Assembly: GCA_965214705.1 (NCBI GenBank)
Contig: CBDCCI010000002.1
Span: forward strand, 2,048,001 to 2,112,000
Length of the DNA: 64,000 nt
Source of the DNA: Alphaproteobacteria bacterium
GTDB lineage: Bacteria > Pseudomonadota > Alphaproteobacteria > UBA828
Reading direction: 5' to 3'
Positions 24,001-27,000 of the stretch are shown piece after piece (positions within the stretch are counted from its first letter, which is position 1; each line of letters begins with the position of its first letter). A program made the position numbers.

Positions 24001-27000
24001 CAACAGCACGGCCGGGAGATCAGCGCTCCTCATTGCTGTCCTCCTGCATCGCAGGTTCGGCCGCTTGTGTCAGAAGAGTGGCCAACCGTTCCGTCACGAT
24101 CATGCGTTCGGCCAGGCTCAGCCCCTGAAGCTCGGTCGATTCGAACGCCAGTGCGATCTGGCGCGGGGATGGTGGAAGAACTTTCAAGGCGGACGTCATC
24201 GGTCTCCCCTCGGGAAAGATTCGTAGCTTCCCGAGAGTCCTGCCTGACGCCGGTGTCGATCAACAGACTGTGGAGTTCTGCCAATGCAGAAAGAGAGATC
24301 TCCGGTTCGCCCAACTCCATTCCCGCGCAGGCCGCTGCATCGAGCATCCAGCTCGGGATCAGGGTCAACTCGCCGGAGGGGGCCTCGACCCGAACCGCAG
24401 GATCGGAAGCGCGCTGCTCACGCTGGACTACGCGAACCGAAAGCCCGTGAAAGCGGTGCCAAGGATAATGGACCTCCGCAATCTGCCCGATATGGGCAGA
24501 AAGGCTTATCCCCTTACATCCGGCTTCTCCATATGTGGGGTGCCGGATCGCTGGGCACTTTACGGGCAACCCATTGAGACACGGAAGGAACTGCGACCGT
24601 GTCGGATACCGCCGCCGAGGTGGCCGGTACAACATGTTGGGGAACCGGAGCCAGAGGGATAAGCCTTTGGGCAGAATGTAAGGAAGACGGTCGTCTCCCG
24701 GCTGCTTGGCCACTCCAATTCGCGCATGACGCTCCGCTATGTTCATGTCGGCGACCGCGAGATCGAGGCGGCGGCAGAACGCATCGGTGTAGCCATCAGG
24801 GCGGCATTGGACGCTGGTACCACAAACTCGGGCGACTAACCTAGTGTTGCAGGACCATTTCTTAGTCCGGGCTGAGACCACGAGATGAGGAAGAGCGCGT
24901 CCGGTGGAGGGGATTTGGGGCATTCCCGAGCTCGGCTCGGCCGATTCAATGGACGCTGTCGAAGCTGCCGAACGGCGTTCTCGGGCTCTTCGGGCGTGAT
25001 TATCCGGCGTCGGCAGCGGACGCGCCGCGACCCACGTGCTTCTGTGGTGGCGCCTGCGGGATCAGGCGCCGGGCGTGCTCAGGATGACGGCGAGGGCGTC
25101 CTGCGCGCGGGCGGCATAGTGGCGGTTGGCCTCGGGCAGATAGCGGAAGCGGCCGTCGCTGCGCACGATGGCGATGGCCGCGTTGGTCAGGCAGGCGAGA
25201 TTGCGGGGCATGTGGCGCACGTACGCCCGGCAGCGGTCTTCGTCGTAGGTGAAGTCGCGCACGTAGTGCAGCCTGTTTTCGATGTGCCAGTGGTTGCGGA
25301 CCAGGGTCAGCAGCTCCTCGGGCCCGGCGCGGTCTGCGCTGAGCGAGGTGAGGCTGTAGGCCACCTCGATGCTGCGCTTGCCGGTCTTGAGGATCTCGCG
25401 CTCGCGTTCGATGCGCACCGCCTGGCGGCGACCATGGAGATTGGCGTAGCCGTCCCACTCGGCGCCGGAGAGGTCGACGACGGCACAGCGTCGGCGCTCG
25501 ATGCGGCCATGTCCCTTGTCGACGGTTTCGTGCCAGGGCGCGTCGCTGAAGTCGATCGCCTTGAGGTCTTCGAGGATGGTCTCCTGATTGTCCTTGATGG
25601 CGCTGACCACATAGTCGGCGCGGCGTCCGAGCAGGCAGCGCGCGGTTTCCTGCTGGGCGTGCATCGCGTCCATGGTGACGATGCGCTCGGTCAGGTCGAG
25701 GCTGCTGGAGAGCTCGCGCACGGCCGGGATTTCGTTGCTCTTGCTGTCGACCTCGACCTGTCCGAGGACCAGACCGCTGTCGTGCTCCACCGCCGCGACC
25801 ATCATCCGGCGTCCGTTCTCGGTCTGCGCAGACGCGCCGCGCAGGTCCTTTCCGTCCAAGGCGATCGGCGCATGCGAGGTGCTTTGCTGGGCGGTCCACT
25901 GGCCGATGGCATTGTCCAGGGTCTCGGGAGGCAGGGCTGCGAGGATTTTGTGGAAGGTGGTGATCGAAGGCGCGGTATAGCACTTCCTGGAAGGGCTCCA
26001 GAACGCGCCCACCGCCTCGAGCTGGTCCTGGCTGAGCAGGGCGGCGAACTGGGCGAACGCGGTCACGCCGCGATAGCCGGCAAGCCGGGCCGCGACGGCG
26101 AGCGCGAGCACGGTGCTCAAGGGGTAGCGCTTGCCCCGCGCGAAGCGGCACTCGGGTACCTCGCCCAGGCACTCGAACAGACTGCGCAGCCCAGGCGCGG
26201 CCATCGGCTCGGTGTGTTGCTCAGCGTTCCAGTGCGCCGGCATCTCGGTCCGGCTCAGCGCCTCGGCGGCGCCTTCGCTCAGTTCGAACACGAAGACCTC
26301 CTTGGGCTGGCCGTGGTGGCGCCAGCGCGGCGCAGCCCCGGGGTCGCGGGCAAAGCCGCGCGTCATCCCCAGCGAGCGCCAGTTCGACGCGCGGTAGCAG
26401 GTGCCGGCGAACCTCGAAGGGTCCACGAAAGTCTCGGCCAGGAGCACCGGGTAGCCGTGCACCGCCTGCATGTCCGCAGACAGCCGTCTCAGGCTCAGCC
26501 CCAGCACCCGCGAGGCCAGGTTGGGCACCCGGTGCGGCGTCAGGATGACGAAACGCGAGTTGTTGGCGATCAGATGCAGGCGCCGGAACTGCTGCTCCGT
26601 CGACCAACCGATCCAGCCGTCGCGCGCGGCCAGCTTGAACGCGCCCGGCTGCCAGCCGATCAGAGCAACCCAGCTCTCGCCGTGTACCGCGACATGGCGC
26701 AGGCCTTTGCCGATGACGCCGTGAAACGCCAGGTAGTGATGCTCCGACACCAGCCGGTCCCAGCGCCGGTGTTCCCGCGCGCCCCAGGTCGGACGCACCG
26801 TGACCGCGCGCAGATCAATGGACCAATCCTCGACCAGCAGCGGCGCCATCAACGGCACACTGCCACGCCGAGAACGAAATGACCAGCCCGGAGTTCAGAT
26901 CACGACGCCCGCGGGGCGAACAAAAAACTAGCCCTGCCTAGTGTTGTGTCCCTCAAATACGAGCAATATAATGATGCCCTCTCAACCCATCTTCGTCATT

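Follow-up and report, generated by a model that had tools for sequence, protein, structure and literature searches.

The window, the whole stretch of 64,000 nucleotides that was analysed, contains a transposase gene whose product begins with a match to the Pfam family of DruA, a protein of Druantia defense. Transposases are usually regarded as enzymes that cut and join DNA only, and the locus raises the question of what this N-terminal domain is and what it might do on an insertion sequence (IS).

The insertion sequence and its paralogue

The element, its ends and its flanks are as follows (coordinates in the window).

24850..26936, minus strand: whole insertion sequence, ISAs1 family, 2,087 bp; relic similarity ends at 24850 and 26936/26937, and the sequence itself shows both ends and the duplication beside them
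26917..26936, minus strand: inverted repeat, transposase-proximal end, CAGGGCTAGTTTTTTGTTCG on the minus strand
24850..24869, plus strand: inverted repeat, distal end, CAGGACCATTTCTTAGTCCG on the plus strand
24840..24849, no strand: target-site duplication, first copy, CCTAGTGTTG, 10 bp, adjoining the distal end of the element
26937..26946, no strand: target-site duplication, second copy, CCTAGTGTTG, a perfect direct repeat of the first, adjoining the transposase-proximal end

The element moved as a unit, giving a 10-bp target duplication. Its 20-bp terminal inverted repeats are imperfect, with matches at 14 of 20 positions, and the CAGGGC tip of the transposase-proximal repeat is also present in a paralogous 2.2-kb IS. 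This genome holds one intact copy and about five degraded relics (76 to 90% DNA identity), while related elements in other genomes are 2,080 bp long and have the same termini. A search of species-representative genomes yielded 388 related stretches, and 59 of the 80 loci that were kept came from one assembly; in 58 of the related loci both ends could be recognised, and 41 of these had identical 10-bp flanks. Close relatives of the element are highly mobile in other genomes. In an RNA run from a sponge metagenome, a fraction of 0.32 of the sampled words of the 2,087-bp element was present, a match that we do not read as a sign of expression or habitat.

The coding region and its domains are arranged as follows.

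25062..26858, minus strand: transposase ORF, 598 aa from GTG, stop codon included (ORF, Pfam, NCBIfam, homologues)
26244..26816, minus strand: N-terminal Mom-like GNAT domain, aa 15 to 205, with the PF14236 match at aa 28 to 169 (AlphaFold2 model, Foldseek, VIA-align)
25893..26174, minus strand: DDE_Tnp_1_assoc helical domain, aa 229 to 322 (Pfam, 4.8e-14; all-helical in the full-length model)
25218..25865, minus strand: DDE catalytic core, aa 332 to 547, with D335, D397 and E527 (Pfam DDE_Tnp_1, NCBIfam ISAs1)

An ATG at 26849 (595 aa) is the likelier start, since close homologues are mostly 595 aa long and their alignment begins at residue 4. That the ORF encodes an ISAs1-family transposase, as a first-pass annotation had proposed, was borne out by the NCBIfam model NF033564 (217.1 bits against a cut-off of 70; aa 250 to 564, model positions 1 to 313 of 314, with the same E value of 3.1e-64 as given there), by the conserved DDE residues and by the ends with their 10-bp duplication. 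All three Pfam domains that it had listed were also recovered, namely, DruA (PF14236; 5.8e-22), DDE_Tnp_1_assoc (4.8e-14) and DDE_Tnp_1 (2.9e-14). Among 61 aligned homologues, D335 and D397 were invariant and E527 was at least 90% conserved; we take these residues to be the DDE triad from the motifs LDGK, TxDAxH and HWxIEN. The helical DDE_Tnp_1_assoc domain is presumably the DNA-binding part. For its part, the C-terminal two thirds found its closest solved fold in the Tn5 (IS50) transposase (PDB 1MUH, chain A; Foldseek E value of 2.6e-9 over about 400 columns), although identity is 13%, and Tn5 lacks a GNAT domain and begins instead with a DNA-binding domain of its own. A flexible linker joins the modules (GNAT domain, DDE_Tnp_1_assoc and DDE core) of this one protein.

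Like other members of the ISAs1 family, the element has a single ORF for a DDE transposase that matches NF033564 end to end, short imperfect inverted repeats and a 10-bp duplication. It is unlike them in its 2.09 kb and 595 to 598 aa and in its separate GNAT domain, canonical members in ISfinder being about 1.2 to 1.5 kb long with transposases of about 300 to 380 aa. Since the match to the family model begins no earlier than aa 250, the roughly 210 extra N-terminal residues form the separate domain, and it is this addition that carries the element beyond the typical size; we regard it as a size variant, with no reason for exclusion from the family. Among 149 representatives there was no peak of shortened "OrfA-like" proteins that stop close to query residue 375; the 40 that end before residue 560 do so at scattered places and lend no support to a conserved two-ORF layout.

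The three-domain architecture is common: thousands of proteins with a transposase annotation have it, and the label "ISAs1 family transposase" is already in use for them. Most of the listed relatives had been said to share it, and 111 of the 120 listed do carry all three Pfam families; the total of relatives came to 1,108 among 8,000 scored candidates and not to the 1,927 reported, and 3 of the 120 bear the name "ISAs1 family transposase" that had been ascribed to them.

A further claim, of a 2.2-kb IS with 15-bp inverted ends and 17 to 21 copies, describes the paralogue, as two paralogous ISs of the window had been merged into one description; the element studied here is 2,087 bp long, is present in one intact copy and has 20-bp ends that agree at 14 of 20 positions. 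The paralogous IS is 2,202 bp long, its ends match at 19 of 20 positions, and it is present in 19 full copies at 99.1% identity or more plus 4 partial ones. Its protein is 34 to 37% identical to the 598-aa transposase. The source of the copy-number claim lies in the window.

5160..7199, plus strand: interrupted copy of the paralogous 2,202-bp IS, with its first 172 bp at 2892-3063

The A7 site of this paralogue was covered without difference by contigs of run X1 (one contig of 418 nt, depth of 185). The A7 run may still be a systematic homopolymer error, because the library type of X1 is not on record and X1 may be the genome's own sample. Runs X4 and X9 gave short diverged pieces only, and RNA run X15 gave nothing over the stretch. 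As for a frameshift-stimulating RNA structure after the site, the 68 nt examined folded no better than shuffled sequences (z = 0.50; 137 of 200 as good).

Fold and relatives of the N-terminal domain

The AlphaFold2 model of the N-terminal domain (pLDDT of 94.2) shows secondary-structure elements in the order beta1-alpha1-(alpha2)-beta2-beta3-beta4-alpha3-beta5-alpha4-beta6, which is the GNAT topology. Foldseek gave 357 matches to the model at E values of 1e-3 or lower, and the top PDB match was Mom of phage Mu (8bv8_B; E value of 1.8e-7; TM scores of 0.57 and 0.60). Mom was also the top match in VIA-align, a method independent of Foldseek that was run over 48,161 chains (Z of 15.3, rmsd of 3.6, 167 residues aligned), the next GNATs reaching a Z of 12.6 at most. 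Of the 212 chains with a Z of at least 8, the best 50 were essentially all acyltransferases. The viral structural matches included phage "endonuclease-like" proteins of about 500 to 700 aa. When PF14236 clusters were left out of an ESM Atlas search, the share of members with Pfam Mom was 11%, 100% and 42% in the top three listed clusters (best score, 0.90), and 24 of the 30 hits had the family set of the first hit, with Mom on 11% of members. As modeled, the domain adopts a GNAT fold, with phage Mu Mom as its closest solved relative, and we consider it very probable that the element is an ISAs1 IS with a Mom-like GNAT domain.

At the sequence level the relationship is distant. The Pfam Mom family (PF25680) scored 14 bits on the 598-aa protein (E value of 0.041), under its cut-off of 27.1, and was matched at E values of 1e-3 or lower by 5 of 82 aligned homologues, the best at 2e-6. 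Direct BLASTP of the domain against Mu Mom found nothing significant (best E value of 0.081 over 14 residues), and the link thus depends on profiles and structure. Profile comparison with hhalign gave an E value of 0.0042 with a probability of only 8%, and paired H41-Y42 of the domain with H58-Y59 of Mom, N113 with N121, S116 with S124, D146 with D149, R149 with R151 and Y155 with Y159. The counterparts of Mom H58, Y59, R111, S124, D149, R151 and Y159 would accordingly be H41, Y42, R102, S116, D146, R149 and Y155, where the pairing of R102 with R111 is our own reading of the beta4 motif, at which hhalign has a 5-residue gap.

Among 149 representatives at 50% identity, these residues were conserved in the following proportions of aligned sequences: H41, 121 of 125; Y42, 112 of 126; R102, 145 of 147; S116, 140 of 145; D146, 128 of 139; R149, 105 of 138; and Y155, 127 of 137. 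R102 and S116 were kept in every IS-linked class of this genome. One ISAs1 paralogue here has N and L at the positions of D146 and R149, and the Tn5-like fusions of this genome have P, G and E at those of Y42, D146 and R149. Judging from the alignments, the family as a whole retains counterparts of the Mom active-site residues. The HTH-like insertion of Mom (residues ~175 to 209) lies opposite gaps in the greedy hhalign alignment, and the model has only short strands there (residues 166 to 186).

The Pfam DruA match scores 78.6 bits against a cut-off of 27, and the BLASTP similarity to the genome's own DruA was reproduced at 23% identity and an E value of 3e-5. Comparison by hhalign with true DruA gave a probability of 91.5% and an E value of 8.4e-7 over 161 columns, the core that the two share starting at "GxxLRY" and reaching the last strands. 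The assignment of an N-terminal DruA domain thus holds as a Pfam match and as distant homology, but not as the DruA of defense. PADLOC assigned the 598-aa transposase to 0 families, no DruA model matching, whereas the real DruA of this genome was recognised at 9e-196 beside DruD and DruE in a Druantia type I locus. True DruA has V at the R102 position in 86 of 87 and G at the S116 position in 77 of 78 aligned sequences, the genome's own DruA likewise, and in comparison with the domain it is longer by about 110 residues at the N terminus and contains a long insertion ahead of the last strand. Between the profiles of Mom and of true DruA, hhalign found nothing (E value of 0.52).

The proposed joining of DruA to a transposase is consequently better described as the presence of a Mom-like GNAT module, Mom being nearest by structure and its key residues being kept in the domain and missing from true DruA. 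This module recurs on transposons, and Druantia DruA is its diverged relative. For Druantia type I, this places DruA in the same GNAT lineage without the residues essential in Mom, which narrows its role: binding or sensing, or catalysis of a different chemistry, becomes more likely.

In this genome the domain travels with three different transposase families. It is fused to ISAs1 and to Tn5-like transposases (771 aa in the Tn5-like case), whereas with IS66 it has a gene of its own, which lies immediately downstream of the transposase gene and overlaps its stop. Between the paralogous ISs, no other part than this domain cross-matches at the DNA level, and 6,406 clusters at 50% identity match it. 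In the 48 homologues from a whole-protein search, which is the only fair test, identity was 0.77 in the domain and 0.74 (0.74 to 0.75) in the DDE core; by this sequence comparison, conservation of the domain is no lower than that of the core. An apparent surplus of conservation in distant homologues (0.52 versus 0.36 to 0.37) was discarded as biased, its 12 rows having been picked by a search with the domain.

Candidate roles for the domain

The reading that we favor is of an ISAs1 IS whose transposase carries a Mom-type acyl- or aminoacyltransferase module acting on DNA, an activity that we deduce by analogy and to which we give a little less than an even chance. Taking its parts separately, the domain is predicted, with slightly better than even confidence, to be catalytically active on some substrate, and DNA as that substrate is rather doubtful. 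Mom transfers glycine from Gly-tRNA(Gly) to the N6 of adenine in double-stranded DNA, as has been worked out recently (PMC13219725). The N-terminal domain would likewise be an active acyl- or aminoacyltransferase, held next to DNA by the DNA-binding domain of the transposase, and would modify a base at or near the element ends or the target; by analogy with Mom, this might be an adenine at N6, with an aminoacyl-tRNA or acyl-CoA as the donor. The purpose of such a modification could be regulation or marking of transposition, or protection of the DNA from restriction. Transfer of the chemistry of Mom to the domain is a guess, since according to the authors of that study neither substrate nor co-substrate is predictable from structure (PMC13219725). 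As Mom chemistry is known, the same assays are usable on the domain (PMC13219725).

Were the favored reading true, many insertion sequences would also modify nucleic acid or another substrate, given that thousands of transposases carry the module, and possible uses would include timing transposition, marking ends or targets and evading restriction. A broader proposal, which we consider unlikely, is that a large class of bacterial DDE transposons possesses a competent Mom-type transferase (fused in the ISAs1 and Tn5-like elements, an accessory gene in IS66) that would write covalent base marks on ends, targets or the genome at large, possibly with a charged tRNA as donor, DruA being a catalytically diverged offshoot.

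The alternative that survives best, though we judge it somewhat unlikely, is an exapted, noncatalytic GNAT module that binds DNA or RNA or aids oligomerisation of the transposase, its conserved residues being kept for binding. In DDE transposases, it is usually the N-terminal region that binds the ends of the element. Some subfamilies have other residues in place of D146 and R149. The relative DruA lacks the R and S residues, so that noncatalytic versions of the fold probably exist. Furthermore, Mom itself is a dimer that binds double-stranded DNA, and its HTH-like insertion, absent from the domain, is essential for activity (PMC13219725). Against a purely binding role stands the retention of R102 and S116, whose counterparts are essential for Mom catalysis, across the representatives and in every IS-linked class of this genome. 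The transposase also already contains a separate helical domain of the DNA-binding type, and recurrence of the module with ISAs1, Tn5-like and IS66 transposases, three families with unrelated ends, fits poorly with a family-specific, sequence-specific recognition of ends.

It is improbable, in our estimation, that the module is a conventional acyl-CoA-dependent GNAT acetylating a small molecule or a protein (the transposase itself, or a nucleoid or replication factor of the host) and so tuning transposition to the state of the cell. Dozens of classical N-acetyltransferases do match the model (VIA-align Z of 11 to 12.6; Foldseek E values of ~1e-6 to 1e-5), but Mom stood above all of them in both structure searches, and the language-model neighbors among the listed ESM Atlas clusters, PF14236 left out, are Mom clusters. 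The beta4-alpha3 loop is also at odds with this role, as the family has N-L-A/G-S, resembling the N-S-E-S of Mom, and not the classical GNAT motif Q/R-x-x-G-x-G/A. In favor of this role, Aravind and colleagues call DUF4338 simply a GNAT domain (PMC10853773).

That the domain is a Druantia DruA module acting in or against that defense, as a decoy or a mobile defense part, is very improbable in spite of the above-threshold Pfam match, the profile-profile homology and the Druantia type I locus (DruA, DruD and DruE) in the same genome, given that no PADLOC DruA model matches, that the PF14236 match covers only profile positions 59 to 220 of 297, that the active-site pattern is unlike that of true DruA, that the architecture occurs in thousands of proteins annotated as transposases, and that the gene is bounded by IS ends with only other IS and recombinase ORFs as neighbors and no dru genes.

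Known systems and literature

Among characterised systems, phage Mu Mom (PDB 8BV8, PF25680) is the closest to the domain by two structural methods and by its conserved active-site counterparts; it differs in being a free phage protein with an HTH-like insertion, whereas the domain is fused to a transposase, scores under the Pfam Mom cut-off and has a predicted activity only. Druantia type I DruA (PADLOC DruA1, PF14236) shares the Pfam family and the core, but is longer, lies in a dru operon and differs at the R and S positions, where V and G are found.

In PMC Creative Commons papers and bioRxiv, no paper was found that links Mom to ISAs1 or DUF4338 transposases. Within the same collections, none of the DUF4338 papers concerned transposases, none combined DruA with GNAT, and none of those on DruA, DruB or DruC dealt with function; searches for ISAs1 with acetyltransferase and for Mom-like with transposase gave papers irrelevant by title or abstract, and ISAs1 with GNAT gave resistome or genome surveys, judging by title. 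The words DruA, Druantia, transposase and DUF4338 are absent from the main text of the Mom study, although its supplements hold a similarity network of 9,647 homologues that could include such fusions (PMC13219725). The combination of Mom, GNAT, transposase and DNA modification retrieved only a review of jumbo phages, which describes fusions of a Mom-family GNAT to a restriction-endonuclease fold (Iyer et al., Viruses 2021, PMC7824862). As in the transposase, a Mom-type GNAT and a DNA-cleaving enzyme are there united in one polypeptide; the partner there is a nuclease, interpreted as part of a restriction system, whereas here it is the DDE transposase of an insertion sequence.

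The insertion sequence and its 2.2-kb paralogue

The element under study is an ISAs1 insertion sequence (IS) with an enzyme-like accessory domain. The features of the element and of the ISs around it are as follows (window coordinates, or residues of the transposase).

24850-26936, (-), whole IS, 2,087 bp, termini read directly
25062..26858, (-), transposase ORF, 598 aa from a GTG start
aa 28-169, DruA/PF14236 domain, profile positions 59-220 of 297 (Pfam 5.8e-22, 78.6 bits, cut-off 27)
aa 229-322, DDE_Tnp_1_assoc domain (Pfam 4.8e-14)
aa 332-547, DDE_Tnp_1 domain (Pfam 2.9e-14)
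aa 250-564, ISAs1 model match (NCBIfam 3.1e-64)
5160-7199, (+), interrupted copy of the 2.2-kb paralogue, its first 172 bp apart at 2892-3063
27422-28923 and 59798-61299, two copies of a 1,502-bp IS (99.9% and 97.3% identity)

The three Pfam domains and the ISAs1 match reproduce the values of the first-pass annotation. Most close homologues of the transposase are 595 aa long, with alignments beginning at residue 4, which makes the ATG at 26849 a likelier start codon than the GTG. The 20-bp termini are CAGGACCATTTCTTAGTCCG and CAGGGCTAGTTTTTTGTTCG and agree at 14 of 20 positions, and the similarity of the element to its relics ends at 24850 and 26936/26937. A perfect 10-bp direct repeat, CCTAGTGTTG, flanks the element (24840-24849 and 26937-26946); a clean transposition event therefore brought it to this site. 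It is an ISAs1-type cut-and-paste or copy element making 10-bp duplications. When the full 7.92-Mb genome was searched at DNA level, a single full copy was obtained, and about five places gave fragments of 76-90% identity, several interrupted by other insertions.

The first-pass annotation had described a 2.2-kb element with 15-bp inverted ends and 17 to 21 copies, values that do not hold for this IS in length, ends or copy number: two paralogous ISs had been fused into a single description. The 2.2-kb paralogue (reference copy G000:C1:1252066-1254267, on another contig of this genome) is 2,202 bp long, has ends CAGGGC(G/A)AATTTGTCCAAGC matching at 19 of 20 positions and a 10-bp duplication, and is present in 19 full copies at at least 99.1% DNA identity plus 4 partial ones. 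Its protein and the 598-aa protein share only 34-37% identity.

In every copy of the 2.2-kb paralogue the transposase is split over two frames, which overlap at CAA_AAA_AAC, a classical -1 slippery heptamer in the correct frame (A7 run at window 6192-6198), with a stop 6 nt after the heptamer. Readthrough by -1 yields a full ISAs1 transposase, including the N-terminal domain. No RNA structure was predicted downstream of the A7 run (z 0.5). The run is supported by a contig of a public sequencing run whose library type is not on record; therefore, the two-frame layout could be due to programmed frameshifting, transcriptional slippage or a systematic homopolymer error. Degraded relics of the element at two places, G000:C1:2531723-2534402 and C3:3030948-3033491, have a copy of the 2.2-kb paralogue inside or directly against them; at the former, relic pieces lie on both sides of it.

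The surroundings of the element are an IS-dense stretch. The 1,502-bp IS has about 25 copies in the genome, and its copy at 27422-28923 contains a 376-aa ORF (27667-28797). A 685-aa ORF at 21976-24033 is, by sequence, a putative large serine recombinase-like protein.

A Mom-like GNAT domain on the transposase

Residues 1-215 were modelled with AlphaFold2 from 82 homologues; the model reached a mean pLDDT of 94.2 and showed, in the N-terminal domain (aa 15-205), the strand-helix order of a GNAT acyltransferase. DUF4338, another name of the family, had been called a GNAT domain in passing, as a DndF fusion partner, by Aravind and colleagues (PMC10853773). The best Foldseek match in the PDB was the phage Mu protein Mom, 8bv8_B (E 1.8e-7, TM 0.57/0.60, 198 columns of the 202-residue chain), with classical N-acetyltransferases next in the ranking. 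VIA-align, which is independent of Foldseek and covered 48,161 representative chains, also placed 8bv8_B first (Z 15.3, rmsd 3.6 Å, 167 residues aligned), the next GNATs reaching a Z of 12.6 at most. In a viral model library the top matches were phage NAT-superfamily proteins, a protein named Mom, and GNAT domains fused to endonuclease-like proteins.

At the profile level, matches to the Pfam Mom family with E <= 1e-3 were obtained for 5 of the 82 homologues (best 2e-6), and the 598-aa protein itself scored below the cut-off of 27.1 (14 bits, E 0.041). A protein-language-model search without PF14236 clusters gave a best score of 0.90; 24 of 30 hits had the family set of the first hit, and the top three listed carry Pfam Mom on 11%, 100% and 42% of their members.

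According to the accessible text of Silva et al. (PMC13219725), Mom moves glycine from Gly-tRNA(Gly) onto adenine N6 of double-stranded DNA, in an active site lined by H58, Y59, D149, R151 and Y159. When the 82-sequence domain alignment was compared with 111 Mom homologues by hhalign (E 0.0042, probability only 8%), it paired H41-Y42 with H58-Y59, N113 with N121, S116 with S124, D146 with D149, R149 with R151, and Y155 with Y159. In our own reading, R102 would pair with R111 through a common N-x-R-hydrophobic strand 13-14 residues before the serine, where hhalign leaves a gap. Conservation was counted among the 149 best 50%-identity representatives of the domain.

H41, 121/125
Y42, 112/126
R102, 145/147
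S116, 140/145
D146, 128/139
R149, 105/138
Y155, 127/137

Within the Mom family, 108-111 of 110-111 sequences keep the residue at the corresponding positions. The GNAT domain of the transposase is Mom-like, and strong constraint acts on its Mom-type residues. As counter-evidence to this likeness, Mom activity requires an HTH-like insertion (residues about 175-209; PMC13219725), whereas neither the predicted model nor the alignment with Mom holds a counterpart of it in the IS-borne domain.

In the full-length model (mean pLDDT 81.7, pTM 0.58), three confident units are joined by a low-confidence linker at about residues 206-220, so the model does not fix where the GNAT domain lies with respect to the core. 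The C-terminal part is closest to the Tn5 transposase 1muh_A (E 2.6e-9); D335 and D397 do not vary among 61 homologues, in which E527 reaches a conservation of at least 90%. The GNAT domain and the catalytic core are equally conserved (identity 0.77 versus 0.74 in 48 homologues picked by whole-protein search), and DNA-level similarity between the paralogous ISs of the genome is confined to the GNAT domain.

The module on other transposons and in DruA

The genome holds 55 PF14236 matches, only one of them DruA; in 14 control genomes this search gave no match. ISAs1 fusions form four subfamilies. Eight further loci place the domain ahead of a Tn5-like transposase, in seven full 771-aa frames (one diverged) and one truncated to 364 aa, with weak matches to Tnp_DNA_bind, DDE_Tnp_1 and Tn5 dimerisation. 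A free-standing 293-aa DUF4338 protein has about eight copies or related loci; in the copy at C2:475198-478484 its gene directly follows that of an 802-aa IS66-family transposase (PF03050, 1.5e-54), with stop and start overlapping, both genes sitting in a repeat of about 6.5 kb. Two putative tyrosine-recombinase-like ORFs were also read in this repeat.

G000:C1:266856-269171, 771-aa Tn5-like fusion (6 further full copies)
C3:2114427-2114792, one of these 6 copies of the Tn5-like fusion, about 2.4 kb past the window's end
G000:C3:1256127-1268360, (-), Druantia type I locus L032, in another part of the window's contig

R102, S116 and Y155 are retained in the ISAs1, Tn5-like and IS66-linked classes alike, and in the free-standing protein the Mom-type residues H, Y, R, S, R and Y are all present. 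D146 and R149 vary, being E or Q in IS66-linked genes and N and L in one ISAs1 subfamily; the Tn5-like fusions have P, G and E in place of Y42, D146 and R149.

The Druantia locus matches PADLOC models for DruA (9e-196), DruD (1.5e-129) and DruE (E 0). Its second gene (822 aa) had no PADLOC match, and the expected DruC place (L032 12800-14665) holds no operon-strand ORF of at least 250 aa except one of 264 aa, itself without a match. The earlier BLASTP result against this DruA (23% identity, E 3e-5) was obtained again, and hhalign supports homology with the transposase domain (probability 91.5%, E 8.4e-7, 161 columns). True DruA differs in an additional N-terminal region and a long insertion ahead of the last strand. 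In a set of 110 DruA proteins, all at least 64% identical to that of this genome and hence one subclade only, the R102 position is V in 86 of 87 aligned sequences and the S116 position G in 77 of 78. The Mom and DruA profiles did not match each other (E 0.52). The IS-borne domain is therefore intermediate between Mom and DruA, and its catalytic pattern is that of Mom, not that of DruA.

Candidate functions and spread of the architecture

We infer the functional core of the Mom-like transposase idea as follows. The GNAT domain would be an active transferase, kept on DNA by the transposase, and would modify a base located in the ends or the target or close to either; such a modification would regulate end reuse, serve as a mark of the element, or protect DNA against restriction. 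That the domain catalyses something is slightly favoured; DNA as its substrate is a tentative proposal, and the Mom authors' caution that the substrates of Mom itself are unpredictable from structure (PMC13219725) applies here too. A non-catalytic part in binding or oligomerisation is a possible but disfavoured reading. A sequence-specific end binder is unlikely because the module is common to three transposase families with unrelated ends. A conventional acyl-CoA acetyltransferase of protein or small molecule, the type ranked next to Mom by Foldseek, seems improbable. A Druantia-related role, despite the homology with DruA, is very improbable; the PADLOC DruA models did not match the 598-aa transposase. 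The idea as a whole is surprising for transposon biology and is directly testable, since the chemistry of Mom is known.

The fusion itself is no discovery, because, as the first-pass annotation had cautioned, the architecture can be seen in public domain annotations and its proteins already bear ISAs1 transposase names. That annotation had found no paper joining DruA/DUF4338 with ISAs1; likewise, the openly searchable literature (subscription papers and supplements lie outside it) rendered none on the fusion, on a DUF4338/DruA-Mom link or on a Mom-transposase link.

Among 8,000 candidates scored, 1,108 relatives of the 598-aa protein were found at E <= 1e-3. All three Pfam families occur in 111 of the 120 relatives listed, in agreement with the earlier statement that most share the architecture, and 3 of the 120 (Gemmatimonadota, Boseongicola and Acidobacteriota) bear the name "ISAs1 family transposase". 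The N-terminal domain alone matched 6,406 clusters (50% identity) at E <= 1e-3 and 3,306 at E <= 1e-10.

A scan of one genome per species gave 388 stretches related to the element, of which 80 loci were kept (protein identity 85-99%), 59 from one alphaproteobacterial metagenome-assembled genome and the remainder from six other assemblies. In the former, sharp similarity limits of 20 copies define a 2,080-bp unit with CAGG termini as in the element. Of the 80 loci, 58 had both ends recognisable by their pattern; the ten flanking bases of these 58 were identical in 41, differed by a single mismatch in 1 and by at least 5 in 16. With 0.32 of the element's sampled words, a word match that speaks to neither expression nor habitat, a metatranscriptome labelled as sponge metagenome is among the 20 public runs from ten studies in which parts of window 24851-26936 occur.
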